From the NCBI GenBank assembly GCA_964345045.1, contig CAYFPM010000001.1, positions 539,264 through 603,263 of the forward strand: DNA of 64,000 nt, written 5' to 3'. The notes below the pieces were generated by a model, which did no database searches, was not told the origin of the DNA, and worked only from the letters and a program-made list of their open reading frames with translations. Each line of letters begins with the position of its first letter. Positions within the stretch are counted from its first letter, which is position 1. The translations under genes were made by a program, and so were the position numbers. Shown here one piece after another: positions 3,896 to 59,857 of the stretch. The stretch comes from an uncultured Gammaproteobacteria bacterium. GTDB taxonomy: Bacteria > Patescibacteriota > Patescibacteriia > Magasanikbacterales > UBA922.

Positions 3896-5879
3896 TTTGG
3901 GGTTGGGTTTAATCACCCTATTGCTATGGCCAGGCAAAGAGGTACTAGCTGCCAACGAAATAGAAGTAAACGTACGAATAGAGGGACCTTCGGCCAATAT
4001 AGTTGATCAAGCTGTACAAATCCCAGATAGTTGTACAGTTACAGATTCTGCCGGAGGTACCCACACCTTTACCAATTACGAGGCTATCTGTGCTCTACAA
4101 GTACTAAAAGAAGCCGGTACCATTGATTTTCAAGCTACAGATTGGGGCTGGGCTATGGCACTAGACAGCATAACTAACATAAAAAATGCTAGTGATTGGA
4201 GTGAATCTTGGTTTATTCGTATAAATAGCGCTACTTCCAACTTTGGGATAGATTCTTTGGTACTTAATCCAAATGATCGTTTACTTTTGGGCTACGGTGG
4301 TTGGCCTTTTCCAGAACCATTACTTTTTGAAAAAACAGGTAATGCTGCCAAAATTGGAGATTCAGTTACCTTTGTCACAAAAATTTGGAATGACGACAAT
4401 GGAGGTTACGAAGATTATCAAAGTCCTGTTATTTTTTATCTAAAAGGAACTCCAATCTCATCGGAAAATGGAGAGATCACTTGGACAGTAGACACCATTG
4501 ACACTTTTCCTATTTGGGTAGAAGCAGTAGGAAAAATAAGAAGTCCCAAATATCAATTTGAACCAAAAGCTACAGAAGCTAATTACATTGGAAATCAAGT
4601 AGGACTAAATACCAAAGAAGCTGTTGATTTTCTAGAAAAAAATCAAAACAAAGACGGCTCATTTGCCAAAAACCAATTATTTTCCGACTGGGCCGCGATT
4701 GCTTTGTCTACACAAGACACCAACAATTCTGCCAGACAAAAAATCACTAACTATCTATTACAAGGAAGAAAACCCGGAAAAAATACTACAGATTACGAAA
4801 GAAGAGCTTTGGCACTTTTGACATTAGGAATTAATCCCTATGATGTAAATGGTAGAAATTATATAGAACCAATTGTAAATGATTTTGATGGAACTCAAAT
4901 TGGTAACAAAGATTATGTAAACGATGATATATTTGGGCTACTTGTCTTGAGAAAATCTGGATTTGATTTGAGGGAAGAAATAATAACAAAATTGACCAAC
5001 CATATTCTCTCTAACCAAAATAAAAATGGTTCTTGGGCAGAAAGCACAGATATGACCTCTGCTGCTATCCAAGCCCTTCAAACAGTAGAAGGAGCCACAA
5101 ATGTTTACGAAGCTTTGGAAAAAGCAAAAAGATATATAAGAACCCAACAAAAAACAAATGGTAGTTTCAACAACAGTGCCTACTCTACAACTTGGGCAAT
5201 ACAGGCAATTACCACTTTGGGAATGGATGCTTCTGACTGGTACAAAAACGACAATACTCCTGTAAATTATCTAGCCGCCTTGCAAGAGCCCGATGGAGGT
5301 TTGGGAAAAGATTCTCCTATTGAAATGAGGATTTGGTTAACTTCCTACGCTATTCCAGCTTCTTTAGGCAAAAGCTGGGCAGATTTGATGCATGAATTCC
5401 CAAAAGGAGAAATAAAAATAATTGAGAAAAAAGAAGAAACACAGGAAACTTTGGAAGAAACAAAAGAAGAAATAATCTCAGAAAAAACAGAACTTAATAT
5501 CAAAGAAAATATTAAAGAAGACACTGAACCTTTGGAACCTGAACCAAAATTAAGCGAAGAAGTTTTGAAATTAAAAATTGTAGAAGATATATCGGTAGAA
5601 GAACCTAAACAAAATATTATTAGCACAAACCAAATAGAAAGAGAAAGACCTGTAGAGATAGCAGAAGTTGTAGACAATCAAACCGAAGAAAAGATTATTG
5701 AAAACGAAGATCCTGTAATTCTGGAAACAGTATCTGCCGATGGTTCTGTACTGGCTGCTGCCGATAATTTGCCTACAGAAGGATCAAACAGCGCTAGAAA
5801 TGTATTTCGAACAGCTACTACCCTAGCCACCACCCTAGGAGCCTATTTGGCTTGGAGAGCCTTGCAGACTATAGTGTAA
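3873..5879 (+). CDS. surface protein: DUF4430-like domain + alpha/alpha-toroid (prenyltransferase/terpene-cyclase-like repeats), acidic linker, LPTEG sortase signal; transcobalamin-like
   Basis: signal peptide; repeats KDGSF/KNGSW/TNGSF/PDGGL with aromatic residues; LPTEG at 5769-5783 followed by a hydrophobic stretch and a basic tail. Confidence 0.55.
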   Translation: MNKMKQISLGLGLITLLLWPGKEVLAANEIEVNVRIEGPSANIVDQAVQIPDSCTVTDSAGGTHTFTNYEAICALQVLKEAGTIDFQATDWGWAMALDSITNIKNASDWSESWFIRINSATSNFGIDSLVLNPNDRLLLGYGGWPFPEPLLFEKTGNAAKIGDSVTFVTKIWNDDNGGYEDYQSPVIFYLKGTPISSENGEITWTVDTIDTFPIWVEAVGKIRSPKYQFEPKATEANYIGNQVGLNTKEAVDFLEKNQNKDGSFAKNQLFSDWAAIALSTQDTNNSARQKITNYLLQGRKPGKNTTDYERRALALLTLGINPYDVNGRNYIEPIVNDFDGTQIGNKDYVNDDIFGLLVLRKSGFDLREEIITKLTNHILSNQNKNGSWAESTDMTSAAIQALQTVEGATNVYEALEKAKRYIRTQQKTNGSFNNSAYSTTWAIQAITTLGMDASDWYKNDNTPVNYLAALQEPDGGLGKDSPIEMRIWLTSYAIPASLGKSWADLMHEFPKGEIKIIEKKEETQETLEETKEEIISEKTELNIKENIKEDTEPLEPEPKLSEEVLKLKIVEDISVEEPKQNIISTNQIERERPVEIAEVVDNQTEEKIIENEDPVILETVSADGSVLAAADNLPTEGSNSARNVFRTATTLATTLGAYLAWRALQTIV

Positions 5880-5911
5880 TAGTATATCCTGTAGAATATA
5901 AAATAAAAAAT

Positions 5912-6433
5912 ATGAAAAAAAATACTCTAATACTTACAGCCCTATTAATTGCTCTAGGCATTGCTGGTAGGCTACTCCCCCACCCGGCCAATTTTACTCC
6001 AGTAGCAGCGATTGCTCTTTTTGGAGCATTTTACCTGCCCAAACGCTGGGCTGTAGTTTTGCCTCTTTTGGCAATTTTGCTTAGTGATATCTTTATTGGT
6101 TTTTACAATCCAAAGATGATGATCGCTGTTTATGGTAGTTTTGCCATAACTGGTGCTATTGGTCTTTATTTCCGAGAGAAAAAAAGCTTTGCAACAGTAG
6201 CAGCTAGCACCTTGCTTGGTTCGATTATCTTTTTTCTGGTTACCAATGCCGCTGTTTGGGCCTTTGGCACTATGTATACCAAAGATTTAGCAGGACTCTT
6301 GAACAGCTATACCATGGCTATTCCATTTTTTAGAAATAGCTTACTTGGAAATGTGTTTTTTGTAAGTTTGTTGTTTGGTAGTATGGAAATGCTTTTATCC
6401 ACCCAAAAGAAAAAAGCTTCTCTAAAAACTTAA
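5912..6433 (+). CDS. small multi-TM membrane protein, ECF-transporter S-component-like (CbrT-like candidate)
   Basis: ~173 aa, 5-6 TM helices; sits in the putative B12 operon; start taken at MKKNTLIL (5912) rather than the upstream in-frame ORF start. Confidence 0.4.
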   Translation: MKKNTLILTALLIALGIAGRLLPHPANFTPVAAIALFGAFYLPKRWAVVLPLLAILLSDIFIGFYNPKMMIAVYGSFAITGAIGLYFREKKSFATVAASTLLGSIIFFLVTNAAVWAFGTMYTKDLAGLLNSYTMAIPFFRNSLLGNVFFVSLLFGSMEMLLSTQKKKASLKT

Positions 6434-6450
6434 TAAGATTTAAAAATAAA

Positions 6451-6480
6451 AAAACTCCAATGTAAAATTGGAGTTTTTTA
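6451..6480 (+). terminator. rho-independent terminator (CTCCAAT-GTAAA-ATTGGAG + TTTTTT)
   Basis: read directly in the sequence. Confidence 0.65.
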
Positions 6481-6694
6481 TTGGCTATATGTGAGTATAA
6501 CTAAACTAGTGATAAAAAATTTGTTAACTATAGACTTTCTAAAAATGAAATAAAGATCAACTTATACCATAAGTAAAAGTAAAAAGCTCTTCCCTCTCCC
6601 CCCGTTAGCCTGCCCTGATCAAAGCCTCGGGAAGCATATCTGGTAAACAATTTGACCCCACCTAACCTCCCCTCATAGGGGAGGAAAAATTGAT

Positions 6695-8137
6695 TTAACC
6701 AAACTTTACAGTATCCCCATAACCAACCATGTCTCCAGAATCTGTTCGATATTTGCCAGAAGTTGGAGTTTCTTTTTCTTCTGCTTCTTCTTCTGCTACT
6801 GGGGCTACTACCCCCTCTATAGGCAAACCCGGAGGAGGTTCGGCTCGCTTGCCTTGAGCTTTTTGGATAAGCGGTGTTTGTACATGAGACATTGGGAAAT
6901 GCCAAATCGTAGCCAATTCTTCTATGTTCATTATAAAAGGACTGCCTCCACTATTTATTTTTCTTTTCTTAAATGCTTTTACCAAAAGTTTTTTTCTATA
7001 AGATACTCGCTTATCCTTTAGGGCATAAGAAGTGGAGACCGTATACTTGGGTACAATCGAATTTGAACTAGGAATATTAAATTGATTAATAGCTCCAATC
7101 ATAGCTTGAACACCACGTTCTGGTCTAAATACTTCTTTTCTGGCCACATACCCCCCTCTAATCTTGGTTTTAAAGCCTATTTTTGCAATTTTGTTTTCCA
7201 TTGCTTCTACTAGCTTTACTTGCCCTGGTGTCATGTAACGTAATTTATTTGGCTCTCCACTATCGGAATCTTTGCTACTACCAGAAGCTTCTGCTACGCC
7301 TCCACCAGAGAGTTGAGCCCCTATTTCTGCCAAACCTTTGGTAATCTCATCTGCCAACAAATTATCTGTAAGCAAATCGACTGGGCTGGAAGAAGAAGAT
7401 TTGGTTTCTTCACCTATAAATTCTTTTATTTTTTTGATAGATTTTTCTTTCCAACTGTTTCCAGTTGGTTGGAGTAGAATTTGAAACCACATCTGCTCAC
7501 CAGGACCTATTCTACTAAAACTTTCCAAAAATGTTCCCATAGGATCTTTTAGAACTGTATCTTTGGAAATACTGTGTTCAAATTCTGTGTAAGAACGAAT
7601 TGGAAAAGCATCTGATTCTGCCAAGCCAAAATCCCCCATCCAAACATCGTGAGTGTCGTTGGGATATTCGGCTGGAATGTCTTTGGTATAGTCTTCTACT
7701 TCGATAATTTCTGCTTCTGGGTATTGGGCATAGATAGAAGCTTCTACCAAATCTCTAAATTTTGCTTCTGTTCTAACCAAAAACTGAATATAACCCTCTA
7801 TACTAACAACCTCAAAACTAAACCAGCGTTGTTTGTAACCTTGTCGAAATCTTTCTGCCAAATTTGGGGACTCGTAAACCCCGGCAATATGAGCAAACAT
7901 TTGTTCGACCGCTTTTGGAGTCTGAACGTTTAAAGCCGGGATATCTACTGCCAAAAGTACCCACTCCCAATTTTCTTTGTATTTTTCTTCTTTGTATTCT
8001 TCTAGATAATAAACTACCAAAAAAGCAAAAACCCAAAACATTAATATCCAACCAAAAAGCACAAAAAGCTGGTAGATTATAGCTCCAGTAGAATTAGTAC
8101 TAAAAAAATTAGCAATGGTATTGAAATCAAACTGCAT
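6695..8137 (-). CDS. conserved hypothetical membrane-anchored protein (N-terminal TM pair, large soluble domain)
   Basis: 480-aa ORF with coherent composition; no family recognised. Confidence 0.55.
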   Translation of the reverse strand: MQFDFNTIANFFSTNSTGAIIYQLFVLFGWILMFWVFAFLVVYYLEEYKEEKYKENWEWVLLAVDIPALNVQTPKAVEQMFAHIAGVYESPNLAERFRQGYKQRWFSFEVVSIEGYIQFLVRTEAKFRDLVEASIYAQYPEAEIIEVEDYTKDIPAEYPNDTHDVWMGDFGLAESDAFPIRSYTEFEHSISKDTVLKDPMGTFLESFSRIGPGEQMWFQILLQPTGNSWKEKSIKKIKEFIGEETKSSSSSPVDLLTDNLLADEITKGLAEIGAQLSGGGVAEASGSSKDSDSGEPNKLRYMTPGQVKLVEAMENKIAKIGFKTKIRGGYVARKEVFRPERGVQAMIGAINQFNIPSSNSIVPKYTVSTSYALKDKRVSYRKKLLVKAFKKRKINSGGSPFIMNIEELATIWHFPMSHVQTPLIQKAQGKRAEPPPGLPIEGVVAPVAEEEAEEKETPTSGKYRTDSGDMVGYGDTVKFG

Positions 8138-12690: not shown

Positions 12691-12736
12691 TCTTGGTAAG
12701 TTCCCTCTCCTAATAGGAGAGGGACAGGGTGAGGTC

Positions 12737-13114
12737 TCAAGACCTAGTTGACTCTAAAATATAAAAACAATCTTCAAGGCATTGCAGTACTGTTTCCCTT
12801 TCAAATAAAACTTCATCATTTAAAAACCTTATTACTACATACCCCTGACTACGCAAATGTAATTCTCGCCAAGTGTCATATTCTTTTTGTTCTTCATGAA
12901 TTGGGCCATCGACTTCAATAATAAGCCTCAACTCATGACAATAAAAATCTACAATAAATCTGCCAATGCTAACCTGCCTACGAAACAAATAACCAACTTT
13001 TTTGTTTCGCAATTCTTGCCACAAAACGCATTCAGCTTTAGTATTATTTCTTCTTAAGGATCTTCTTTTAAATTTTAATTCTTCGTCTTTTACATTACGC
13101 GTTCTTTTCTGCAT
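12737..13114 (-). CDS. DUF559 / Vsr-like endonuclease domain protein
   Basis: ECVLWQELRNKKVGYLFRRQ...FIVDFYCHELRLIIEVDGPIHEEQKEYD matches DUF559; flanked by GC-rich palindromes at 12702-12725 and 13149-13169. Confidence 0.8.
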   Translation of the reverse strand: MQKRTRNVKDEELKFKRRSLRRNNTKAECVLWQELRNKKVGYLFRRQVSIGRFIVDFYCHELRLIIEVDGPIHEEQKEYDTWRELHLRSQGYVVIRFLNDEVLFERETVLQCLEDCFYILESTRS

Positions 13115-13187
13115 ATCCTCCTTTAGTTTTGGTTTAGACCTCCTCCTGCCCTCCTCCTAAAAGGAGGAGGAACTTACTATGAAAACT

Positions 13188-16127
13188 TTATGCCCCATGA
13201 CATTTTTTGAATTTCTTTCCGCTCCCACAGTGACAAGGATCATTTCTACCAATTTTTTTACCAGCTTCATCACGCGGTTTTTGCTCTACCAGACCAGCCT
13301 CGCTAGATGTAGTTTTTTTGGCGCCTTTTAGCGTCATTTTGTCATTGGCCATAATAGTAGGCGCTGCTTGTAAGCCAACCCCCACCTTGAAAAATGAATA
13401 AACTACTTCTTTTTGAATATTAGCTTGCAAAGCGTTAAAAAGATTATAAGTTTCCTTTTTGTATTCTATTAGAGGATCACGTTGGCCATAACCTTGCAAA
13501 CCAATACCGGTACGCAAATAATCAATAGAAATAAGATGTTCCACCCACAAATTATCTATGGCTCTCAAAAGAATACTTTTTTCAATTGATTTAAATACTT
13601 TTTCGGAATCTTCTTCCCCTGGAACATTGGCTTTTACTTTTTCTTGAATATTTTCATACTCTCTTTTGGCAATTGCCATCAAAAACTTCACAATTTTGTC
13701 ACGCTGTTTTACATCGTCAAATTTGTCAGAATCACTAATTTTGTCCATAGACAAAATTTTGTTTTCTTCTTCTTTGGAAAGTGGAAACATGGTTTTGCCC
13801 GTTTCTACAATTTCTTTCATATTCCAATCACTCTTTTTTTCACCTGTTTCACTAGCTACCGGATTGGTATGAAAAGAAACTACAAACTCTATTTCTTGTT
13901 CTATCATGTCTAGGATAACCCCTTTCAAAGTCTTGTATGGCCTACCATCTTCTTTGTGACCTTCTGCCCCAACACCAACCTCGGCCAAAGCCGGGTTCTC
14001 ACCTCTCCCAAGGGGAGAGGTCGACACGACCGTAGGGAGTGCGGGAGAGGGGGAAGAAAGAGCTTTATCCTCTGTAGTCATAACTTCTTTTGCAGTCAAC
14101 TCCAAAATATTTCTACGTCTTTGGTAAATAGCTGCGCGCTGCTTGTTTAATACATCATCGTATTCTAGTAAATGTTTTCTAGTGTCAAAATTATGAGCTT
14201 CTACTTTTTTCTGAGCATTCTCGAGCATTTTGGTAATCATCTTTTGCTCAATAGGCATGTCGTCTGGGACGTTTAATCTTTCCATTACAGATTTCATCCT
14301 GTCGCCCGCAAAAATACGCATAAGGTCATCGTCTGTAGACACAAAAAACTGGGTCTCACCTTTGTCTCCCTGGCGAGCCGAACGACCACGCAACTGATTG
14401 TCGATACGGCGAGAATCGTGACGTTCTGTACCAAGTACAAAAAGTCCACCAGCTTCTAAAACTTTGGTCTCTTCTTCTTTGTTTACCGGGCTACCGCCAA
14501 GTTTGATATCTACCCCACGACCAGCCATGTTGGTAGCGAGAGTGATAGCCCCAGGTCTACCAGCTTGAGCTACGATCTCCCCTTCTCTCTCATGGTTCTT
14601 GGCGTTTAAGGCTTCGTGGGCTATGCCACTAGCTTCTAGATAAGCACTTAGCTCTTCGTTTTTTTCTACAGAAATTGTACCTACCAAAATTGGTTGTCCT
14701 TTGGCTTGGCATTCCTTTATTTTTTCTACAATTGCTTTGAATTTGGCTTTTTCATTTTTGTAAATTCTGTCTGGATGATCGATTCTGGCATCAGGTCTAT
14801 TGGTCGGCATCACTACTACATCTAGTCCATAAATGCTTTGGAACTCTTCTTCTTCGGTAATAGCGGTACCGGTCATTCCAGACAATTTGCTGTACATGCG
14901 AAAAAGATTTTGAAAAGTAATAGTTGCCAAAGTTTGACTTTCGCGTTGGATAGATACATTTTCTTTGGCTTCTATAGCCTGGTGTAGACCTTCGCTGTAG
15001 CGACGACCAGGCATTTTGCGACCAGTAAATTCGTCGATAATTATTACTTCGCCACCTTCTACCACATACTCTTTGTCGCGATTAAACAATACTTCTGCCT
15101 TTAGCGCTTGCTCTAGGTGGTGCACAATACGCATACCACCTTCGGCATAGATATTATCTACGCCCAAAGCTTTTTCCATCTTGGCAATTCCCTCTTCTGT
15201 AAGCGTAGCTGCTCGCATTTTTTCGTCTACATTATAGTCTTCGTTTTCTTTTAGTTGTTTTACCAATTTGGCAAATTGATAGTACTGATCTGCAGCCTCG
15301 GCAGCCGGGGCAGAAATAATAAGAGGTGTTCTGGCTTCATCAATTAAAATAGAATCAACTTCGTCGATAATCGCGTAGCTCATTTCTTCTCCCGGACGCA
15401 TTACCATCTCGGACAGATCTTGCACCATGTTGTCACGCAAGTAATCAAAACCAAACTCGTTGTTGGTTCCATAGGTAATGTCTGCTCTGTAAGCTTCTTG
15501 TCTACTAGCCGGACGCAGGTATTCGTCTTCTACTTTAAAACTACCGGTTTCGTCACGTTCTTTGTCTATTTCTCCACCTTGGGCCTTCTCGGAAGCCAAA
15601 GCGGGTGAAGGGCTCGGTAGTCCACTGTCATAAACAAAAGAAACTCTCTGATTTTGAATAATACCTATAGATAATCCTAGGTAATCATAAATTTGTCCCA
15701 TCCACACAGCGTCACGTTTGGCTAGGTAATCGTTGACTGTAATTACGTGTACTCCTTTGCCAGCTAGAGCATTTAGATAAGTTGGCACAGTCGCTACCAA
15801 GGTTTTACCTTCACCAGTACGCATTTCGGCAATCTTGCCGCGGTGCAAAATAATCCCACCAATAAGCTGCACATCGTAGTGGCGCATGCCAGTAGTACGT
15901 TTGGAAGCTTCGCGCACAGTGGCGAGGGCTTCTACCAAAATATCTTCTAGAGTTTCGCCTTTTTCTAGACGAGCTTTAAATTCTGGTGTTTTGGCTTTTA
16001 GTTCGGCCTCGGATAATTTTTCGTAGTCCTTTTCTAGATTATTAATTTTTTCTACCAATGGTTTTATTTCATTAATTATCTTGGCGTTGGTATCGCCCAC
16101 AAAAATTTTTGATAGTAATTTTCTCAT
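13188..16127 (-). CDS. secA: preprotein translocase ATPase SecA (C-terminal zinc finger CHCGSGKKFKKCHGA); contains GC-rich in-frame inserts
   Basis: DEAD motor motifs and the SecA C-terminus; start set at the internal MRKLLSKIF (SecA-typical) rather than the upstream TTG of the ORF track. Confidence 0.93.
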   Translation of the reverse strand: MRKLLSKIFVGDTNAKIINEIKPLVEKINNLEKDYEKLSEAELKAKTPEFKARLEKGETLEDILVEALATVREASKRTTGMRHYDVQLIGGIILHRGKIAEMRTGEGKTLVATVPTYLNALAGKGVHVITVNDYLAKRDAVWMGQIYDYLGLSIGIIQNQRVSFVYDSGLPSPSPALASEKAQGGEIDKERDETGSFKVEDEYLRPASRQEAYRADITYGTNNEFGFDYLRDNMVQDLSEMVMRPGEEMSYAIIDEVDSILIDEARTPLIISAPAAEAADQYYQFAKLVKQLKENEDYNVDEKMRAATLTEEGIAKMEKALGVDNIYAEGGMRIVHHLEQALKAEVLFNRDKEYVVEGGEVIIIDEFTGRKMPGRRYSEGLHQAIEAKENVSIQRESQTLATITFQNLFRMYSKLSGMTGTAITEEEEFQSIYGLDVVVMPTNRPDARIDHPDRIYKNEKAKFKAIVEKIKECQAKGQPILVGTISVEKNEELSAYLEASGIAHEALNAKNHEREGEIVAQAGRPGAITLATNMAGRGVDIKLGGSPVNKEEETKVLEAGGLFVLGTERHDSRRIDNQLRGRSARQGDKGETQFFVSTDDDLMRIFAGDRMKSVMERLNVPDDMPIEQKMITKMLENAQKKVEAHNFDTRKHLLEYDDVLNKQRAAIYQRRRNILELTAKEVMTTEDKALSSPSPALPTVVSTSPLGRGENPALAEVGVGAEGHKEDGRPYKTLKGVILDMIEQEIEFVVSFHTNPVASETGEKKSDWNMKEIVETGKTMFPLSKEEENKILSMDKISDSDKFDDVKQRDKIVKFLMAIAKREYENIQEKVKANVPGEEDSEKVFKSIEKSILLRAIDNLWVEHLISIDYLRTGIGLQGYGQRDPLIEYKKETYNLFNALQANIQKEVVYSFFKVGVGLQAAPTIMANDKMTLKGAKKTTSSEAGLVEQKPRDEAGKKIGRNDPCHCGSGKKFKKCHGA

Positions 16128-16311
16128 AGGTTTAAAAGCCTGCCTGCCGGTAGGCAGGGCTAAAAAAGCTTGCAAGGCTGGCTGATTTATAATAGTTAAC
16201 TGGACTAGCTTAGCACTTTTTTGGCTCTGTGTCTATGGGTAGAAAAATTACTTTACCCTTGACAAAGTGGCTTATTTATGATAAAAATTTGTCAGGAGGC
16301 TCGTCAATTAC

Positions 16312-16509: not shown

Positions 16510-16659
16510 ATACCACAGGAGGTAGGAGGACTACCCCCGTGCGCCCCCCTTTTCTCCCCCCCTTCGCGCACCCATCCAAAAACAATCCCCCGAATTATCG
16601 GGGTTTTTTATTTGACTTTTTTAAATTAATTAGAAAAAATAACTTGGGGAGTAATACTC

Positions 16660-19318: not shown

Positions 19319-21205
19319 ATGAATCTACTATACGAGAATTTAAAAAGCAACCCAATTGTCTATGTAACTCGAGATATCGAGCGGGCTTTGGGTTTGCCGG
19401 TAGACACACAAGGCTACTATATTATCTCAAACTCTACTCCCTTTGCCAAGAAAATTGCTAACGAAAGAAAAAATATTTTACTGGTAGAAAATAGCGAAAT
19501 TCTAGACACTTGGCAACTATTGGAAAAACCAGAAACCCAAACCTGGATAGAAGCAATCCAACCCTCCCCCCTTGTAGGGGGGAGCAAGAGGGGGGTAAAG
19601 TCAATCGTCGCCTTCAAAAACTCCAAAAAAATAGAAACTATTTGTGAAAAAAATAATTGGGATCTACTAAACCCCAGTGCCGAAGTAATCCAAAATATAG
19701 AAGGTAAAGTAACCCAAGAAGAATTCCTACCAGAACTCTCTCATCTTTACCCACCACATACAATTTCAGAACTACAAACTACAAACTACAAACTACAAAC
19801 TATCTTACAATTCAACCACTCCCACACTGGAGAAGGCACAATATTGCTTGATAATAAAAAAGAATTGGAAGAGTTAAAAAACAAGTTCCCAAAACGTGAG
19901 GTTCGTCTTACAGATTTTGTAAATGGCCAAGTTTATACCAACAATAACGTAGTAGCAAAAAATAAAGTTTTGGTTGGTAATATTAGTAAACAACTAACCG
20001 GCATTAAGCCTTATACAAATAATCCTTTTGCAACTGTTGGTAACGATTGGGGGGCAGCTGTAGATGAACTAAGTGAAAAGCAAGAAAATGAATTCGCCAA
20101 AATTGCCCAAAAAGTTGGTGAAGAATTAAGAAAGAAGAATTGGAAAGGACTGTTTGGAATTGATGTAATCGTAGAAAAAGAAACTGGTAAATTGTACTTA
20201 ATTGAAATAAATGCCAGACAACCACAGTCAGCGGTTTTTGAATCGGCCTTACAGCGAAAAGCGGAAAGCGAAAAGCAAAAAGCGATAACTATTTTTGAAG
20301 CTCATTTGGCAGCTTTGCTAAATTTGGAAGTTAATCTAGAATTAGTTGAAATTGCAGAGGGTTCACAAATTATTGATAGACGAAATGAAGATATAAAATA
20401 CGTCCAAAAACCTGCTATTAGCTTCCAGCCTTTAGCTTTTCGCTCTAATCAAACAACCCTTTCAAAAAAAGGACAATCTGTCTTAAACAACTACCTCCAC
20501 CTCCCCTTCCAAAACACTCAACCAAAAACTCCATATTTTAATAATAAAAAAAGCAAAGTTCGTGGGGGGCTTCGAGCGCTTATAGGCAAAGGTAGTCCAA
20601 CAGAGATTGTAGAAGAAGCCAAAATATTAGCTTTGAAAAAAAAAGTTGATTTTAATAAGTTAGATGAAAAAACTTTAACTAAATTTTTGGTAGACCATAA
20701 TATTGGGGTAGACTGTTCTGGATTTGTTTATCATGTTTTAAAAGCCGAAAATCCTGAAAAAATAAAAAACTTAAAATTTTCTAAATCAAAAAACCCCATC
20801 AGAAATTTTATTCGCAAATTCCGCCCAACCGAAAACACTAGTGTAAAAGTTTTGGCAGATGATAAAAATAGTAAAAAAATAGACTTAAAAGACGTACAGC
20901 CAGGTGACTTGATTACCATAATTGCCGCTGGAAAGAATGCCGATCGTGATCATGTGCTTTTGATAGACGAGGTACAAAAAAATTCTTTTGGTGAAATCAC
21001 TTTTGTGAGGTACACCCACTCACTCGACTGGAGTACCGATGGCAAATACAATCACGGCATTCGCCAAGGAACTATTGAAATTAACGATATAAACAAACCA
21101 CTTATCGAGCAGCATTGGATAGAAAGTGAAAAAACTGGCCAAGAAAACGAAACTTACGGTAGAACCCTAAGTGGCCAAACTTATCTAAGGCGTTTAAAAT
21201 ATTGA
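19319..21205 (+). CDS. fusion protein: ATP-grasp ligase domain + C-terminal NlpC/P60-like cysteine peptidase domain
   Basis: GLFGIDVIVEKETGKLYLIEINARQ (ATP-grasp); GVDCSGFVYHVL ... DHVLLIDEV (Cys/His pair); carries an in-frame GC hairpin and a 7-nt tandem repeat. Confidence 0.5.
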   Translation: MNLLYENLKSNPIVYVTRDIERALGLPVDTQGYYIISNSTPFAKKIANERKNILLVENSEILDTWQLLEKPETQTWIEAIQPSPLVGGSKRGVKSIVAFKNSKKIETICEKNNWDLLNPSAEVIQNIEGKVTQEEFLPELSHLYPPHTISELQTTNYKLQTILQFNHSHTGEGTILLDNKKELEELKNKFPKREVRLTDFVNGQVYTNNNVVAKNKVLVGNISKQLTGIKPYTNNPFATVGNDWGAAVDELSEKQENEFAKIAQKVGEELRKKNWKGLFGIDVIVEKETGKLYLIEINARQPQSAVFESALQRKAESEKQKAITIFEAHLAALLNLEVNLELVEIAEGSQIIDRRNEDIKYVQKPAISFQPLAFRSNQTTLSKKGQSVLNNYLHLPFQNTQPKTPYFNNKKSKVRGGLRALIGKGSPTEIVEEAKILALKKKVDFNKLDEKTLTKFLVDHNIGVDCSGFVYHVLKAENPEKIKNLKFSKSKNPIRNFIRKFRPTENTSVKVLADDKNSKKIDLKDVQPGDLITIIAAGKNADRDHVLLIDEVQKNSFGEITFVRYTHSLDWSTDGKYNHGIRQGTIEINDINKPLIEQHWIESEKTGQENETYGRTLSGQTYLRRLKY

Positions 21206-22749: not shown

Positions 22750-23508
22750 ATGTATCTAAATTGGAACGAACAAACTATCACTGACTTTTCCAACGAAAAT
22801 ATTAACCGCATGTACAATGACGGTTATGTTTTTACTAGACGTGGCAAAGGCGTAATGCAACAAACCAGAAGTGTACGCATTGATCTAAGTAAGTTTGAGC
22901 TCTCTAGCGAAAATAGAAGAATTATACGAAAGGTAGAAGGACTCGAACTAAATATTCTCCCTCTTCCCTACTCTAGCTACACTTGGCAAGTTGGCAAGCT
23001 AGCCAAAGATTTTTATGATGAAAAATTTGGTGTAGGCACTATGAGTGCAAACAAGGTGAAAGAAATGTTAACCGAAGAAAATAAGAGTAATTTTAATGTC
23101 TTATTTTCTTATGTCATTTCGAACCCAAAGGGTGAGAAATCTTTCCGTGAACAAAATGCCCAGACAGAAAGATCTCTGGTCGAGTCTAACGACTCTCCTC
23201 GAGATGACAATAAAATCGGCTACACCATCTGCTACGCCAACGAAAAAATTCTCCACTATTCATATCCTTTTTACAAACTAAACTCTCCCCCTTACGAAGG
23301 GGGAGCTGGAGGGGGTTTACCCCCTAATTTAGGTATGGGTATGATGACCATGGCTGTTAGTGCTGCCAAGGAAAATGGTCTACAATATGTCTACCTTGGA
23401 TCCTTCCAACGCCCAACTGATACTTACAAACTCCAGTTTAGTGGTTTGGAATGGTTTGATGGAGAGAGATGGAGTGAGAATTTGGAGGAGTTGAAAAAAA
23501 CTGTATAA
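22750..23508 (+). CDS. possible aminoacyl-tRNA-protein transferase (Bpt/Ate1-like) carrying an in-frame GC hairpin insert
   Basis: C-terminal YVYLGSFQRPTDTYKLQFSGLEWFDGERW resembles the ATE_C signature; weak. Confidence 0.35.
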   Translation: MYLNWNEQTITDFSNENINRMYNDGYVFTRRGKGVMQQTRSVRIDLSKFELSSENRRIIRKVEGLELNILPLPYSSYTWQVGKLAKDFYDEKFGVGTMSANKVKEMLTEENKSNFNVLFSYVISNPKGEKSFREQNAQTERSLVESNDSPRDDNKIGYTICYANEKILHYSYPFYKLNSPPYEGGAGGGLPPNLGMGMMTMAVSAAKENGLQYVYLGSFQRPTDTYKLQFSGLEWFDGERWSENLEELKKTV

Positions 23509-27280: not shown

Positions 27281-30200
27281 TTATTCTACACATTGGTTTA
27301 ATTCTGTTTCGAGAGAAAAAGATTTTTCTTGATTCACAGCAGTGTGAGAATCTTCCCAAACTTGCAAATCTCTTATTTCTTCTTCATCTACTACCCATTT
27401 CATTCTGATCTCATGGTGATCAGCAGCCTCTATAGAGATTATTTTGGCATTGATCACCTTGTCGGCACAATCTTTTGTTATTTCCAAAATAACATCATTA
27501 AAATCTTGTTCATGAGGAGCAGTAGAATCTTCAAATCTAACTATTTCATGACCATTAGATAAAATTTCTACTTTGGCCTGGCTAGAATCGGCTCTATACT
27601 CATTACCCGCCGGAGTTACAATATAAAATATAGGCTCTATCAATTCACAACTTAGACATTCTTTTACTTCTTCTATTTCTACAATTGGTTCAATTTCACA
27701 ATCTTCTCCTACATAAACTTTTTCAAATTCTACACTTAAAATTTCTTGGCTTTCTAAAGCTGCATGAGAATCTTCCCAAAGCAAGATATCTTTTACTTCT
27801 TCTTGATTGGCAAAAATCTTAATATAAACTTCGTGGTGCCAGTCAGCATCTACATAAACTACTTCAGAATTAATCACATTTTCTTCACAGTTTTTTTCTA
27901 CATCCACTACAACATCGTCAAAATCTTGTTCATGAGGAGCAGTGGAATCTTCAAAGAAAAATCTAGTTTTACCATTTTCAAGGATGGTTTGTTTTACATA
28001 TTTTGAGTCAAGCTGAATTTCTCTACCTTCCGGAGTTACTATATAAACTTCATAAGTGGTTTTGTCACAATCATATTCACATACAGGTAATACTTCCAAT
28101 TCTTCTGGCTGTGGTTCTACAATATAACCACCTACTCCACAATCTGTTTCTACTTCTTTGGTAACTACATAAACATCGGAACGGGTACCTCTACTATCTC
28201 TAAACTCTACATAAACACTAAATTTATTATCTGTTCCAAGAACAACTTCCCTTTCTACAAAAATTTTATTTTTACCGGTTGGAAATTCTTGCCATACAGC
28301 ATCACTCATGTTTCCACTGTCATTCAATCTGTATTCAACAGCTCTTTGTGAATTCAAGACTAATTTTACTTGACCATTAAATAAACAAGGATCAAAATCA
28401 ACGGTATTTATACTACCTATTGGTAATATATGCGTAGAAGATCCTCCACCCCCACCGCCTCCTCCAGATGGTGGAGGGGTTGGTTCTGGAGTAGGTTCTT
28501 CATAATTATTTTGAACAATTACTTCAATAACATCGGTAGCATTATTATTGCTACTATCTACATCTGCAGGACTAGCTTCTGTATCGTGAGCAATGGTTAC
28601 AGTACTAGTTACAAAGCTAGAAAATTGGCTATCTACAATTAAACCAAAAGTAGCAGAACCACTAGCTCCGACAGCCAAATCTCCTATAATTAGGGAGCAT
28701 ACGGTTCCATTTATAGAACCATCTGGACAACTCCAGCTACCAACACTACCAGCTAGAGAAAAAGTTGTTCCGGCTGGAACCACATGATTCATAAATGCTC
28801 CAGTAGCATTGGCCGTACCATTATTAGCATAATCAAAGGTAAATGATACTTGAGACCCAGGTGTAGTAGAATCTACACTACGGGTATTGGTTACAGAAAG
28901 ATCTACATATGGCACAGAAACTCCTGTGATAACCACAGAATCGCTGTTATTAGTAGAATCATGATCAGAAGTGTAAGGATTACCTCCAAAACAGCCAACC
29001 TCACTATTACAGGTCTCACCTGTACGTACAAATGGACTAATCGTAATTGGAAATACGGCAGTATTTTGAATCTGCAAGGCAAAATCAATGCTTCCTGTAT
29101 CATTGTAACCCAATAAAGCTGGGGTGGTAGAAGCCAGACAAACGGTTCCTGAACCGGATCCATCGGCACAGCTCCAGCTACCAGTACTGCTGGCTGCAAA
29201 GAAAGTAGTATTATTTGGCACAGAAACTTCCAACTCTATACCAAGAATTGGTTGGCTGCCCCGATTACCATAATCAAAGGTAAGTACTACAATATCTCCT
29301 GCGGTTGCTTGTGAAGTAGTGCTAGAAGCTGTTAAATAGACATCTCTAGTCTTGTACCCCATGTCCAAACTAAAATCATTAGTCCCTGCGGCTCCCGTGG
29401 TAAATTCTAAGTAAGAATCACCACCAAAACCTTCTAGTAATGACGAATCCAAATCATCGCTTATAGCTGGAACAGAATTTACATATGTATAGGTAGCGTT
29501 GCTAAGAGAGCTATTTGGGACAAGAAAATAATAAGCTGTATTTGGTAATAGAGAATTACCACCAGTCATATTTAGATTATTTGGTCCACCAAAATAAAAA
29601 TTTCCATTGGCGTCTGTAGTAACACTACCTACCAAGGTTCCATTTGAAAAAGTTCCTTGATAAAGATCTACCTGAACATTGGGAAGATTATCTTCACCAG
29701 CATCTTGTATGCCATTATCATTCAAGTCTATCCAAACTCGATCTCCAATCATTATGTCCGAATAGCTGGTAGTAGTTACAAAAGAACTGTCCAAATTGCT
29801 AGCAGGGGCTTGCCCAAAAATTATATTTGAATTGATATTATTGGCAGTATTTGGGATACCGTAGGTAAAATACTGACTTGGCAAAGTAGTATTTGCTACT
29901 TCTATTCTAAATGATTCTGAATCATTAAATGAAAAAGAATAAAGACCTGCTTGTGTAGTTCTACATTGATCAATTAAATTATTGTTAGCATCATAAGCAG
30001 ATACATAAACATGAGGTCTAACCAAATCAACAGCACTATTATAAGTACCATCGGCATCTACATCTACAAAAACTGTACCAGATACATTGCCATTTGTATT
30101 ACAAACCGATGGTACAGATCCGGTTGGTTGAAAAAAAATATGATTATTTTCTACAAACCCTGAATTATTATCAAGGCTAAAAGTATAATAAGACGGATTG

Positions 30201-31512: not shown

Positions 31513-33324
31513 ATGAAATTCTCCCCGGAACAACTAGAAAAAATGGTTGAATATATCCTTAGTGATAACCCTCAAACTAGGGATGATTTTAATACAGCCA
31601 GACAAAATGCATCTGGTAAGCTAAAGATTACTCCCCCATCCAACCGGGAGCTGTTTGCAGCCTACCAAAATTTGCTCAAATTGAAAAGGGTAAAGCAAAA
31701 TAAACAACTAGAAGAATTTTTGCGCAAAGCCAATATTCGTAGTATGTCTGGAATTGCTGTAGTAACCTCTCTAGTAAAGCCCTACAACTGCCCTGGAGAA
31801 TGTGTATATTGCCCTACAGAGGTGCGGATGCCAAAAAGCTACATAGCCTCGGAACCAGCTGCCGCCAGAGCCCTAAGGCTAGATTTTTCGCCGTACGAGC
31901 AGATGAGAAGGAGAATTCTAATGCTAGAATCTAATGGCCACCCTGTAGACAAAATTGAGTATATTATAAAAGGTGGAACTTGGAATGCTTATCCTATTAA
32001 GTATCAATACTGGTTTATTTTGGAAAGCTTCCGAGCCTGCAACGACCTAACAAGAAGGCAAAAGTCAAAAAAGCAAGAAAACCACCCTTCGGCTGATCAC
32101 CCAGAGGGTGACAATAAAACAAAAAAACAAGTAGATGAAAAATCTAGTTTGGAGGAATTGCAAACTGAGTTAGAAAAAGAGCAAAGATATAATGAAAATG
32201 CTAAACATAGAATAATCGGTCTAACTCTAGAAACCAGACCAGACGCCATTAGCCCAAAAACTGTATACCATATGCGTCACCAAGGTTGCACCAGACTAGA
32301 ACTTGGTTTACAGGCACCGGACGATAAGATTTTGGATTTGGTTAAACGTGGTCATAGTGTAGCCGATTTCAAAAAAGCTATTTTGCTACTAAGACAAGCT
32401 GGTTTCAAAGTTGATCTGCATTTTATGCCAGATTTGCCTGGGACTACTCCAAAACATGATGTAGACATGTACAAATCCCTCTTTAGTGATCCGGCTTTTC
32501 GCCCGGACATGGTTAAGATTTATCCAAACACGGTAATCCCTTCGGCAGAACTATACCAATGGTTTCTTGATGGTAGATACAAACCATACGGCGAAGAAAA
32601 TTTATTCAATGCTTTATTAGAAATGAAATTGGCTACTCCAAAATACTGCCGTATTTCTAGATTAATAAGAGACATTCCAGCCAACGAAATTAAAGCTGGC
32701 AACAAAATAACCAATCTAAGAGAAGAGCTGGCCGCTCATCTAAAAAAACAAGGTCAGAAATGTTTGTGTTTGCGTTGCCGAGAAATTGGCCGCCATCCGG
32801 AAATAAAAAGTACGGAAACAAAAATTTTTGTAGAAGAATATGAAACAGTTGGTGGCCAAGAATATTTTTTAACTGTAGAAGACCCCAAAAGAATAGCTGT
32901 TTATGCTTTTTTACGACTTAGAATCCCATATACAGAAAGAGTGACGAGCGTAAGCTCGTCTGACAAACTAACGTTTGTCACTCCTTTGCCCCACAACCAG
33001 GCTAAAAATAAAAAAATTAAAGATATAAGTTTACTCCCAAAAAACAATTTACTCTACAAACTAATTCCCGAAATAAAAAACACGGCCTTTATCCGTGAAC
33101 TTCATACATATGGTCAATTGGTAAAAGTTGGCAAACGTAGTGCCAAAGACAGCCAACACAAAGGCCTAGGCAAAAGCTTGGTCAAAAAAGCCGAAGAAAT
33201 TACCAAACAAAATAATTTGAATAAACTAGCTGTAATCTCCGGAGTGGGAGTACGTGGCTACTACCGCAAACTTGGGTATAGAAAAATTGGAACCTACATG
33301 ATAAAAAAACTTGACGCCAAATAA
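31513..33324 (+). CDS. Elp3-like radical-SAM/GNAT tRNA modification enzyme
   Basis: radical-SAM Cys cluster CPGECVYCP; Elp3-type CLCLRCREIG zinc motif; C-terminal GNAT (HKGLGKSLVKKAE). Confidence 0.7.
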   Translation: MKFSPEQLEKMVEYILSDNPQTRDDFNTARQNASGKLKITPPSNRELFAAYQNLLKLKRVKQNKQLEEFLRKANIRSMSGIAVVTSLVKPYNCPGECVYCPTEVRMPKSYIASEPAAARALRLDFSPYEQMRRRILMLESNGHPVDKIEYIIKGGTWNAYPIKYQYWFILESFRACNDLTRRQKSKKQENHPSADHPEGDNKTKKQVDEKSSLEELQTELEKEQRYNENAKHRIIGLTLETRPDAISPKTVYHMRHQGCTRLELGLQAPDDKILDLVKRGHSVADFKKAILLLRQAGFKVDLHFMPDLPGTTPKHDVDMYKSLFSDPAFRPDMVKIYPNTVIPSAELYQWFLDGRYKPYGEENLFNALLEMKLATPKYCRISRLIRDIPANEIKAGNKITNLREELAAHLKKQGQKCLCLRCREIGRHPEIKSTETKIFVEEYETVGGQEYFLTVEDPKRIAVYAFLRLRIPYTERVTSVSSSDKLTFVTPLPHNQAKNKKIKDISLLPKNNLLYKLIPEIKNTAFIRELHTYGQLVKVGKRSAKDSQHKGLGKSLVKKAEEITKQNNLNKLAVISGVGVRGYYRKLGYRKIGTYMIKKLDAK

Positions 33325-45599: not shown

Positions 45600-45617
45600 A
45601 AAATTATAATCTAAACG

Positions 45618-45935
45618 TCATTCCCGCGTACGCGGGAATCCAGTTAGCAAATCATTACCACTCAAGTCCACCCAGTTAGGATTATCTTTTTCAATCAACT
45701 CAACCTTCCAAGCTCGATTCCACTTTTTCAATTGTTTCTCCCTTTTTATGGCATCATTAATACTGGGATACACTTCATAGTAAACCAACATATGGACATT
45801 ATATTTTTTGGTAAAGCCTTCATTCCTACCAAAAGAATGCTCAACCATTCTTCTGGATAAGTTATTAGTAACACCAATATAAAGCGTACCATTACGCTTA
45901 CTTGCTAAAATGTAAACAAAAAAATCCCTCCTCAT
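45618..45935 (-). CDS. GIY-YIG nuclease family protein (UPF0213-like)
   Basis: FFVYILASKRNGTLYIGVTNNLSRRMVEH; its C-terminal FPRTRE is encoded by a GC palindrome. Confidence 0.8.
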   Translation of the reverse strand: MRRDFFVYILASKRNGTLYIGVTNNLSRRMVEHSFGRNEGFTKKYNVHMLVYYEVYPSINDAIKREKQLKKWNRAWKVELIEKDNPNWVDLSGNDLLTGFPRTRE

Positions 45936-45985
45936 ATTTACTTTGTGGATGCCCAGTCAAGCTGGGCATGACGAATTGAATATTC

Positions 45986-48900: not shown

Positions 48901-49048
48901 GCAGCCCAGATCCAGATGGGTACGGCAGCTGTGGCAGCACATAAGCTTTGTTTTCGGGGGTAGCATCGGCTGGAGTCTTGAACACCTCTTCTTCTTCCCA
49001 TATCTCTTGCCACTTAGCCTCTATCTCTTTTGGGTTATATTCTTTCAT
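45986..49048 (-). CDS. leuS: leucyl-tRNA synthetase with an inserted YdeN/RBBP9-like serine hydrolase domain
   Basis: HVGH class-I motif, CP1 editing domain, KMSKS; residues ~458-645 (YVFIHGRGG...DFWPW...VVAHSHGG) match the Ser_hydrolase fold. Confidence 0.95.
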   Translation of the reverse strand: MKEYNPKEIEAKWQEIWEEEEVFKTPADATPENKAYVLPQLPYPSGSGLHVGHAEVYTACDIYARYLRMKGKKVLQVFGLDSFGLPAENYAIKTNVHPRETIDKTGEMFVSQVKSLGISVDWDRFVRSSDPGYYKFTQWFFLLMYERGLAYRKKQSVNWCDGCKTVLANEQVVDGKCERSDDVVVQKEMEQWYLKITDYADRLLADLDKIDWPEETKMRQRNWIGRSEGAEIDFEIQNSEFRIPVFTTAHDTIYGVSFMVLAPEHELVATLLEETRNPERQANGAGKKQETIVENIDEVEKYIKETSKKTELDRQTQKEKTGVELKGIKAINPINGKEISVWISDYVLATYGTGSIMAVPGADERDYEFAKKFGLEVISVVDSKEEFVSYAEIKKDKKKFKLINSEEFDGFDYEEGRKKILQKIVDGGYGESKVQYKLRDWSVSRQRFWGAPLPILVNEQEAESKRQYVFIHGRGGTAESDFWPWLKAQVEAKGHKVVVLDLPNTEIPNATEQANYLFENIKLDKDTVVVAHSHGGPVAFHLLAKTKQPIAKLVLIDTMLRPEFNDGKEREFRDEAKLQFDFASIKDLPQETVVIADKNYPIIKKEQIDEQVNIFDARVVYASANEDHLTGLVEPAILEEVFVSGLKPVPEKDLPVLLPSDVDFKPTGQSPLTYSEEFQKGVEEKYGAGWKREVDTLDTFMCSSWYYFRYLDPNNENEFASPESLKAWMPVDFYLGGEEHVNGHLLYSRFFTKVLFDAGYIDFDEPFTKNRHQGLILGEDNRKMSKRWGNVINPTDVVNEFGADTLRTYEMFMGPLEQTKPWNDDGVKGVRRFLDRWYDYFAELKENIGDNFAVYKNGEYMGENNPEFEKLLHKSIKKIGEDLDGMRFNTAVSQLMILRKNIGTKEVPTVNYSSVIAMQKLMAPFAPHLAEEIAGMFEFEEFVSLSVWPEYDKEKIVDDVVKIAVQVNGKVRATIEVPAEISEEEVKKTALEQENVIKWLEGKEPKKVIYVKGRLVSVVV

Positions 49049-53843: not shown

Positions 53844-53992
53844 ATATATTCATTAAAACTTTAAAATATTAAAGCATTAAAACAACTGCTTTATTTGTTC
53901 CTAGTCTATACCTCCTAAAATTAGTACGCAAGTGTTAATAAAATCCCCTCCCCTTTAGAAGGGGCGGGTTAGGGTGGGGTTATTCAATATAA

Positions 53993-58380: not shown

Positions 58381-58436
58381 AAGAGATCGTGAGCAAATGG
58401 CTTATATATGGAGCTTTTTGTTCGCGATCTCTTTGA
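58381..58436 (+). other. 18-bp RNA hairpin in the nhaA leader (AAAGAGATCGTGAGCAAA ... TTGTTCGCGATCTCTTT) with two G-U wobbles that form only on the plus-strand RNA
   Basis: read directly in the sequence. Confidence 0.45.
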
Positions 58437-58485
58437 GATCAAATGATAATGGCGCATTTGCGCCCAACACAAGAGGAGTACCACA

Positions 58486-59736: not shown

Positions 59737-59857
59737 CCCCCACCCACCGCGTTTCCCTTCTGGTATTCTCCAGGAAGCTGTTAGAGGACACAGCGAACAC
59801 GCTATTCATTCCTATCTGTCCTCATTCCCTTTGCCCTTAAAAATATTTTAAGATCAA

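Follow-up and report, generated by a model that had tools for sequence, protein, structure and literature searches.

We analysed a stretch of 64,000 nt, hereafter the window, from a bacterium of the Candidate Phyla Radiation (CPR, or Patescibacteria; contig CAYFPM010000001.1 of assembly GCA_964345045.1, forward-strand positions 539,264 to 603,263). Its GC-rich hairpins had been described in an initial annotation as one family, with copies inserted in-frame in essential genes. Here, we show that the core class of these hairpins carries a third arm, the mirror of its purine arm, and that two inverted copies bracket a gene encoding a DUF559 endonuclease; both features had been overlooked. We call this class the triplex motif (TM). 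Coordinates are those of the 64-kb window unless another locus is named, and copy counts for the source genome refer to the window alone. We lean towards the view that the core hairpins are repeats of the BoxC/PIT/TM family, that the DUF559 gene and its inverted TMs, which resemble terminal inverted repeats (TIRs), make up a unit, and that TM doublets and solo TMs would be its non-autonomous derivatives. BoxC/PIT/TM repeats have been known for decades in Escherichia coli and cyanobacteria, with their origin, function and spread unexplained. What is new with respect to that literature is that the TM architecture is common in CPR genomes, that TMs occur in-frame within essential proteins such as SecA and, provisionally, that TMs are physically coupled to DUF559 genes in CPR, Proteobacteria (including ycjD of E. 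coli), Cyanobacteria and Deinococcus.

A hairpin class with a mirror-symmetric third arm

The window is AT-rich, with ~36-40% GC outside two GC-rich genes, and comes from a host close to Candidatus Magasanikbacteria (~37% GC). We scanned it for perfect stems of at least 7 bp with loops of 3-8 nt and an arm GC content of at least 0.6. This gave 18 hairpins, against 1.4 +/- 1.1 in 30 dinucleotide-preserving shuffles, which bears out the recurrence of GC-rich hairpins in an AT-rich background noted initially. Ten of them have stems of at least 8 bp (0.6 in shuffles), and five have arms made purely of pyrimidines and purely of purines, a type absent from the shuffles. Perfect hairpins were found within 1-4 nt of the positions first given for them, at 6666-6684, 12702-12724, 13150-13170, 14001-14021, 19564-19584, 23285-23305, 45620-45639 and 45949-45969.

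Six of these perfect hairpins (those starting at 6666, 12702, 13150, 14001, 19564 and 23285) share a 5' arm that is purely, or almost purely, pyrimidine, a 3' arm that is purely purine and a 3-nt loop. Their stems are 8-10 bp long, and a seventh stem of the window, at 53946, carries a single mismatch. When the window is taken together with 80 related loci (1.45 Mb), hairpins with the pyrimidine arm first (Py-loop-Pu) outnumber those with the purine arm first by 21:1. Since a palindrome reads alike on both strands, this excess is a true asymmetry.

The third arm is a G-rich segment starting 1-4 nt 3' of the purine arm and is a mirror of that arm, neither a direct nor an inverted repeat of it, as in GGGGGGAG-caa-GAGGGGGG. 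We formulated this as a rule (G opposite G, A or T opposite A) and tested it on the 2.6 Mb made up of the window and 160 related CPR loci, which contain 50 distinct Py-Pu hairpins. A perfect full-length mirror arm was found in 23 of the 50, where shuffles of the flanks gave a mean of 0.09 and a maximum of 2. Among the 32 hairpins with at most one mismatch, the mirror match was better than the direct repeat in 28 and worse in none. The 23 perfect cases contain 142 G*G-C, 40 T*A-T and 29 A*A-T triads. With one mismatch tolerated in each arm, a looser search could not tell mirror from direct arrangements (61 vs 57) because the arms are G-rich, and the perfect-match comparison was used instead.

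Mirror symmetry and the tolerance of T opposite A-T pairs are together the signature of an antiparallel purine-motif triple helix; the T-for-A substitutions fit triads, not the tetrads of a G-quadruplex reading. Ordinary replication errors yield direct or inverted repeats, not mirror repeats, and the pattern therefore implies that the three-stranded register is under selection. When the elements of the window are folded by Watson-Crick rules, with a nearest-neighbour method that does not model triplexes, arms one and two pair and the third stays unpaired. Within the window, five copies have a perfect mirror arm, and the third arm of the copy at 53946-53981 mirrors its own pyrimidine arm.

Two of these copies are solo and intergenic. 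The first (6655-6685, minus strand) follows the stop of the gene at 6695-8137 and reads CCTCCCCT-atg-AGGGGAGG-tta-GGTGGGG-TC, with 8/8 mirror positions. The second (53946-53981, plus strand) lies between a DUF4349 gene and gdh and reads CCCTCCCCTT-tag-AAGGGGCGGG-tta-GGGTGGGG-TT. It had been listed as an intergenic copy at 53944-53968; a hairpin is indeed present at 53946-53968, but an imperfect one, with one Watson-Crick mismatch.

Intergenic hairpin copies sit 1-20 nt 3' of stop codons, as terminators would. Yet, the stems are not followed by a T-tract, copies are also present within coding DNA, and the mirror third arm is left unexplained by an RNA hairpin function. RNA does not form purine-motif triplexes (cited in PMC4666352). 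Chance and compositional bias are ruled out by the shuffles. We also traced the source population (PRJEB17505, runs ERR2281800-803) through an exact match to the DUF559 protein and recovered six contigs from four runs, assembled independently. These are 99.97-100% identical to the window and span the elements at 6666, 12702 and 13150 as well as the secA insert. Because the four independently assembled samples agree, the hairpins are not assembly artefacts, a possibility whose exclusion had been called for at the outset. Two of the contigs start beside hairpins, one at 13170, the edge of the hairpin at 13150-13170, and one ~30 nt from the secA insert; contig ends beside repeats are a common effect of repeats. 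Searches of the window with Rfam (gathering thresholds) and ARAGORN gave no matches, so no known RNA family accounts for the hairpins. Hence, an origin of these elements in chance, composition, RNA terminators or misassembly has a negligible probability.

A diverse, partly intragenic subfamily of BoxC/PIT/TM repeats

The same layout has been described in E. coli under the successive names of BoxC, PIT elements and TMECO; it is an intrastrand triplex motif of the class II purine-motif type, and its pattern is CCCTCNCCC-N3-6-GGGNGAGGG-N3-GGGNGAGGG[GTC] (Holder et al. 2015, PMC4666352). Motifs of this type are abundant in E. coli, Enterobacter and cyanobacteria (PMC4666352; Hoyne et al. 2000 cited there). 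In E. coli K-12 there are 23 copies per genome, 'always intergenic' and never adjoining mobility genes; the single strand forms a stable triplex in vitro, the elements stall polymerases in vitro, and they have been linked with local genomic instability (PMC4666352). Between E. coli strains, the copy number of TMECO is reported to range from 1 to 29. The core set of the window has the pyrimidine-arm/purine-arm hairpin of this family and shares with it the order of the parts: a pyrimidine arm, a loop of 3-6 nt, a purine arm, a linker of ~3 nt (often TTA), a mirror G/T arm and a terminal GTC or TC. In both cases the repeats are dispersed in multiple copies and inverted pairs occur.

Exact matches to the TMECO pattern were found twice in a related locus from an Uhrbacteria metagenome-assembled genome (L067), both repeated in L138, which is the same sequence recovered by the metagenome scan. 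The window copy at 12703-12735 differs from the pattern by 3 mismatches, all belonging to one triad, changed from C-G*G to T-A*T. The remaining copies in the window share the layout and have arm sequences unlike the pattern. It is because of the exact matches in L067 and the single-triad difference of 12703-12735 that we place the core class in BoxC/PIT/TM, of which it is, judging from its sequences, a diverse and partly intragenic subfamily. TMECO copies of E. coli K-12 are nearly identical in sequence and lack a mobility gene (PMC4666352), whereas CPR TMs have diverse arms with covarying triads, lie in-frame inside genes in about a quarter of cases and include copies that bracket a DUF559 gene. 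The strictly intergenic trait of E. coli K-12 is not found here, since three window copies lie in long open reading frames (ORFs); we treat intragenic placement as a difference between lineages and not as a structural criterion of the class.

In all, the hairpin sites listed initially fall into at least four structurally distinct classes. The Py-loop-Pu elements (six or seven of them), the pair at 45620 and 45949, the element at 32938-32982 and that at 63958-63993 all differ in structure, and the idea of a single hairpin family had to be given up. That family had been thought to resemble the Rickettsia palindromic elements (RPEs). In behaviour the resemblance holds: like RPEs, the elements are dispersed between genes and also lie in-frame in the genes of conserved proteins, where they add short peptides in tolerated, variable loops. 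RPEs are specific to Rickettsia, measure ~100-150 bp, have family consensus sequences and lack a triplex third arm, and we know of no cognate nuclease for them. Compared with that description, the elements of the window, in a CPR host, are only 31-36 nt long and appear to have neither a consensus nor an origin in common with RPEs; no RPE sequences were compared. Nor are RPEs the sole precedent, as had been supposed, since the main class matches BoxC/PIT/TMECO (PMC4666352). Hence, one RPE-like mobile palindrome family covering all the hairpins is very improbable.

A DUF559 gene bracketed by inverted TMs

The gene at 12737-13114 (minus strand) encodes a 125-aa protein of the DUF559 family (PF04480; E 8e-34), a Vsr-like PD-(D/E)xK endonuclease. 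We found 1010 homologues of the protein, which is also homologous to an 'endonuclease-like protein' of Neisseria (PDB 3HRL, E 2.7e-19), for which the PDB annotation says only that. We know of no activity reported for DUF559, nor of any link between Vsr or I-Bth0305I and triplex repeats. The ORF lies exactly between two inverted TMs. The one at its 5' end (13138-13171, minus strand), TCCTCCTCCT-ttt-AGGAGGAGG-gc-AGGAGGAGG-TCT, with 9/9 mirror positions, is 17 nt past the secA stop codon and ends 23 nt ahead of the DUF559 ATG. The one at its 3' end (12702-12735, plus strand), TCCCTCTCCT-aat-AGGAGAGGGA-c-AGGGTGAGG-TCT, with 10/10 mirror positions, begins 1 nt past the DUF559 stop. The unit thus measures ~480 bp (~12696-13177) and reads, on the gene strand, GTAAGTT-[Y-loop-R-linker-H]-TCT...AGGAGGAT-ATG...stop-GAC-[H'-linker-Y-loop-R]-ACTTAC. 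We considered whether the upstream TM might sequester the Shine-Dalgarno sequence (CCTCC/GGAGG pairing) and set this aside: ~23 nt separate the TM from the ATG, and the start codon has an AGGAGG of its own.

We examined seven distinct DUF559 genes of CPR, namely that of the window, P0003, P0004, P0015, P0021, P0078 and the one in L147, which is the sole further copy among the SecA loci. Each of the seven has TMs or Py-Pu hairpins no more than ~130 nt away; the background in CPR loci is ~1 Py-Pu hairpin per 52 kb. Most are bracketed like the gene of the window, and in L189 the stop codon lies within the TM linker. The association extends beyond CPR. E. coli K-12 has a single annotated DUF559 gene, ycjD, with a TMECO 168 nt downstream; the chance of finding one of 23 copies within 250 nt of ycjD in 4.64 Mb is ~0.0025. 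E. coli KE47 has an extra inverted TM copy 24 nt past its DUF559 gene. We then drew 18 non-CPR DUF559 loci from the 'spread' listing of a plasmid collection, and 12 of them have TMs (arms of at least 7 nt, within 600 nt): Pseudanabaena, Synechocystis (two), N. gonorrhoeae, Deinococcus, Azospirillum, Sphingomonas, E. coli, Photobacterium, Methylobacterium, Qipengyuania and Lelliottia. Shuffles of the eight DUF559 loci of the second batch gave 0-0.05 TMs per locus. In 50-kb controls, 2 of 3 TMs directly flank DUF559 in Deinococcus, 6 of 10 lie within ~200 nt of it in Pseudanabaena, and 6 of 8 convincing TMs are at the DUF559 gene in Sphingomonas. The linkage between TMs and DUF559 across phyla is therefore strong but not universal. 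We found no paper tying DUF559 or ycjD to BoxC/TMECO repeats in a searchable literature that is incomplete, so that a prior description is possible.

Four loci (L007, L147, L189 and L170) contain gene-less doublets in which a plus-strand and a minus-strand TM are separated by 36-65 nt, with the GGTC(T)...AGACC inner borders kept. The L007 doublet even has a leader resembling the 5' untranslated region of DUF559, its ATG included. From their sequences, these doublets look like internal-deletion derivatives of the DUF559 unit.

The main alternative is that TMs are landing pads or cleavage targets, pre-existing sites in or beside which free-standing DUF559 genes insert in the manner of homing endonucleases. 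DUF559 is grouped in the same clade of PD-(D/E)xK nucleases as Vsr and the homing endonuclease I-Bth0305I (PMC3424549), and DUF559 units directly follow the conserved genes secA and polA, each in two lineages. An identical 123-aa DUF559 protein occurs in the P0015 loci L174, L175 and L177 with one right flank (ndk ...) and three different left flanks (UvrD helicase, PPDK and RuvB-like AAA), which points either to a rearrangement whose breakpoint is at the unit or to an assembly confused by repeats present in several copies. In L170 the gene lies beside, not inside, the TM doublet. Nevertheless, most CPR genes are precisely bracketed, their inner borders are conserved and the stop abuts or overlaps the TM, which looks like a single unit; the gene-less doublet of L007 keeps the unit-like 5' leader; and the entry of solo TMs into coding loops is left unexplained. 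We thus find it unlikely that TMs merely preceded the gene as its targets.

Some further observations concern DUF559 loci. In L170 (positions 3966-6658; GCA_964344965.1, from the same metagenome as the window), the DUF559 gene and TM doublet are flanked by two ORFs, PPDK_N (338 aa) and PEP-utilizers (368 aa), which align to consecutive domains of one 1055-aa protein of L175. The element may have split a gene here. In L186 (4583-5828), a related CPR contig, a bAvd gene precedes a reverse-transcriptase gene; the pair resembles a diversity-generating retroelement and lies ~4 kb from the DUF559 unit. PADLOC gave no meaningful defence-system match for the DUF559 and GIY-YIG proteins.

TMs as lineage-specific insertions in conserved proteins

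Three TM-type elements of the window lie within genes. The ATP-grasp gene (19319-21205) contains a TM at 19563-19596 (plus strand), CTCCCCCCT-tgt-AGGGGGGAG-caa-GAGGGGGG-T, with 9/9 mirror positions, which encodes PSPLVGGSKRGV. The Bpt/arginyltransferase-like gene (22750-23508) contains another at 23284-23317 (plus strand), CTCCCCCTT-acg-AAGGGGGAG-ctg-GAGGGGG-TT, also 9/9, which encodes SPPYEGGAGGGL. Two tandem hairpins had been described there: the first (23285-23305) was confirmed, and the second (23309-23325) is in fact the third arm with a 5-bp GGGGG/CCCCC stem. In secA, an in-frame insert at 13985-14065 (minus strand), encoding SSPSPALPTVVSTSPLGRGENPALAEVGVGAEG, contains the perfect hairpin at 14001-14021. 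The G-rich stretch 14035-14054 contains the mirror of its purine arm, but it lies beyond a spacer exceeding 20 nt, so that this copy is an atypical or composite TM.

The closest SecA in the genome and metagenome collections is 70% identical in amino acids. With no relative above this level for a strain-level comparison at the window's own sites, we compared orthologues and used pairs among the more distant loci that we had fetched. In an alignment with ~80 relatives, both peptide-bearing regions of SecA are hypervariable segments, in which most relatives are far shorter and several have their own, different GC-rich inserts, e.g. PSPSQWRGQGEG in L043. The ATP-grasp protein of the window has ~10 extra residues (LVGGSKRGVK) that are missing from most of 15 orthologues; the same loop has other TM-type inserts in L011, L013 and L084 and a different insert in L014. 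The TM of the Bpt-like protein contributes ~8 residues within a loop that is variable among orthologues. The orthologue alignments proposed as a check thus reveal extra residues at the three sites, and a comparison with PDB 6iaz does so for Elp3. From these alignments, the SecA, ATP-grasp and Bpt-like copies are lineage-specific additions in variable loops.

Pairs of closer relatives differ at such sites. L084 is longer by 27 nt than L082 and L002 at the ATP-grasp site (80-84% nucleotide identity), and L090 is longer by 21 nt than L012 and L094 at the SecA site (82-88%). Between L137 (2530-2620) and L147, which are 93-97% identical in nucleotides, one TM differs by the presence of its third arm (25 nt) and has a 34-nt insert nested in its hairpin loop; the sequence comparison thus shows rapid turnover within a single element. 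Overall, 13 of the 50 Py-Pu hairpins are inside long ORFs, a count based on ORFs and not on a gene finder, against none reported for E. coli K-12. In-frame copies may be tolerated because arms made only of pyrimidines or only of purines cannot hold stop codons, so that only loops and linkers matter.

The peptides first quoted for SecA are correct, including the shared SPSPAL. Yet, the first SPSPAL insert (~15590-15620) lacks a hairpin, resembles the second only weakly at the DNA level and is at most an eroded relic. Upstream of secA we also noticed a GC-rich hairpin at 16139-16158, CCTGCCT-gccggt-AGGCAGG, translated as 'LPTGRQA' within the longest secA ORF, and a GTGCGC...GCGCAC stem around a C/T-rich loop at 16521-16579. 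The hairpin CCTGCCTGCCGGCAGGCAGG upstream of DUF559 in L174-L179 resembles a hairpin upstream of secA.

A second alternative is that TMs are structural DNA signals of the cell, such as pause sites of replication or transcription or sites of nucleoid or protein binding, that DUF559 is a housekeeping repair nuclease acting on them and that neither is mobile. Triple covariation across very different arms implies selection on structure, several copies lie just 3' of secA in different lineages, and the E. coli elements stall polymerases in vitro (PMC4666352). However, copies occur on either strand and in coding loops of unrelated proteins, and their presence varies between relatives that are 80-97% identical. 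Published tests gave no promoter, terminator or in-vivo replication effect (PMC4666352), and both the doublets lacking a gene and the bracketing by TIR-like copies are what selfish elements typically show. Immobile host signals are accordingly, in our opinion, somewhat less probable still than targets of a homing-like gene.

A possible route of TM spread

To return to the interpretation that we favour, a mobile unit with TM ends, one might propose the following scenario. In each TM, of 31-36 nt, the homopyrimidine arm is joined through a loop of 3-5 nt to the complementary homopurine arm, which a linker of 1-4 nt connects to the G/A/T mirror arm, so that a single strand can fold into an intramolecular triplex of the purine motif (G*G-C, A*A-T, T*A-T). 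Where the DNA is single-stranded or supercoiled, the TM would transiently extrude and take the form of a hairpin or triplex. The nuclease encoded by the DUF559 gene would sense this structure, not the sequence, and nick by the conserved GGTC(T) border, after which repair or replication would copy the TM to new sites in a homing-like process. The system might be kept up somewhat like REPINs with a single-copy RAYT gene. In such a gene-dense genome, intragenic TMs would survive only if free of stops, frame-preserving (a multiple of three) and located in permissive surface loops, where their arms would add short peptides of the PSPL-GEG type.

Precedents exist for parts of this scenario. In REPIN/RAYT systems, too, a nuclease gene lies between inverted copies of a short palindromic repeat, which is also dispersed as singlets and doublets. 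Yet, RAYT is a Y1 HUH transposase (IS200/IS605 type) and the gene of the window encodes a PD-(D/E)xK Vsr-like DUF559, and REPs are simple imperfect hairpins without the mirror third arm of TMs. The fold of Vsr and I-Bth0305I, in whose clade DUF559 is found (PMC3424549), has precedents both as a selfish homing nuclease and as a structure- or mismatch-sensing nickase, but I-Bth0305I is intron-encoded and has a long duplex target.

Several observations weigh against a mobile DUF559-TM unit. A PD-(D/E)xK nickase is by itself no transposase, and no target-site duplications were seen at the elements. The insertion sites are hypervariable loops in which exact insertion boundaries are not definable, and the third arm of the secA copy is distant from its hairpin. 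Six of the 18 non-CPR DUF559 loci (Picosynechococcus, Sinorhizobium, Shinella, P. aeruginosa, Sphingobium and Novosphingobium) have no TM or only weak 6-7-nt matches. TM orientation is also inconsistent, the third arms being proximal to the gene in CPR and distal to it in Deinococcus and Synechocystis. Finally, a stable triplex of the E. coli elements was undetected in vivo, and published tests found no promoter, terminator or conjugation effect (PMC4666352).

One might go further and speculate that DUF559 (YcjD-type, Vsr-like) is the cognate nuclease of BoxC/PIT/TM repeats across bacteria, in a second partnership of the REPIN-RAYT kind, based on a PD-(D/E)xK nickase and a DNA end able to form a triplex, with non-autonomous copies colonising coding loops in CPR. 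This generalisation is tentative, and we would not yet bet on it. If true, it would explain a repeat family that has been without origin or function since the 1990s and would assign a function to a very large domain family of so far undefined role. The pairing of ycjD with TMECO makes the question directly testable in E. coli. TM insertion also offers a mechanism for loop insertions in conserved proteins of small, gene-dense genomes.

Other hairpin classes and features of the window

The hairpins at 45620 and 45949 form a separate 'GTCAT...ATCCAG' class, placed on either side of a GIY-YIG gene (45618-45935, minus strand). On its 3' flank, the hairpin at 45617-45642 (plus strand) has the form GTCAT-stem-loop-stem-ATCCA, and the ORF reads into it; its inverted partner on the 5' side (45947-45972, minus strand), GTCATGCCCAG-cttga-CTGGGCATCCA, is a perfect hairpin. 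The GIY-YIG orthologue of L114 (6030-6540, 62% identical) has two forward copies upstream and, downstream, an inverted copy and another one, with a hairpin 5 nt past the stop codon. Hence, among the in-frame coding copies proposed initially, those of SecA, ATP-grasp, Bpt-like and Elp3 hold, and that of GIY-YIG is a 3' flanking hairpin. From this arrangement, the GIY-YIG gene with its inverted GTCAT-[6-7 bp stem]-ATCCAG hairpins looks like a second unit of a small nuclease and its cognate hairpin.

Solo elements beginning with GTCAT appear to make up in-frame inserts of the Bpt-like gene and of truB. In the former, a composite palindrome of ~95 nt (23113-23207, plus strand), which is not among the sites listed initially, has an outer stem GTCATtTCGA/TCGAGATGAC and two or three inner hairpins, with a minimum free energy as RNA of -35 kcal/mol. 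The resulting insert of ~27 aa is missing in 11 of 12 orthologues, and L011 has a different insert there. In truB, a GTCATCC... element (63936-63995, plus strand) has a GAAGGATC/GATCCTTC stem at 63958-63993. It had been placed at the 3' end of the gene; as truB is on the plus strand and runs off the window, the hairpin is mid-gene.

The Elp3-like radical-SAM/GNAT gene (31513-33324) has two insertions relative to PDB 6iaz. The one at aa 475-522 (~40 aa) contains a double hairpin closed by an outer stem (32938-32982, plus strand) and the one at aa 180-216 another hairpin (~32083-32110), both of a class other than TM. Compared with solved Elp3 structures, the protein is also extended by 49 aa at its N terminus. 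The adhesin site at 28441-28500, reported as a perfect hairpin, is an imperfect palindrome within a EPTPEPTPPPSGGGGGGGGSS low-complexity linker.

Two other features lie outside the hairpins. In the leucyl-tRNA synthetase encoded by leuS (45986-49048, minus strand), aa 469-623 form an alpha/beta-hydrolase domain (Pfam Abhydrolase_1/6, Ser_hydrolase). It follows the editing domain and precedes the C-terminal part of the catalytic core, which is an unusual domain insertion. The segments 1-2000, with a 393-aa ORF without Pfam match, and 58400-59750, the gene of an NhaA Na+/H+ antiporter, have ~50-53% GC against 36-40% for the genome and are candidates for horizontal acquisition.

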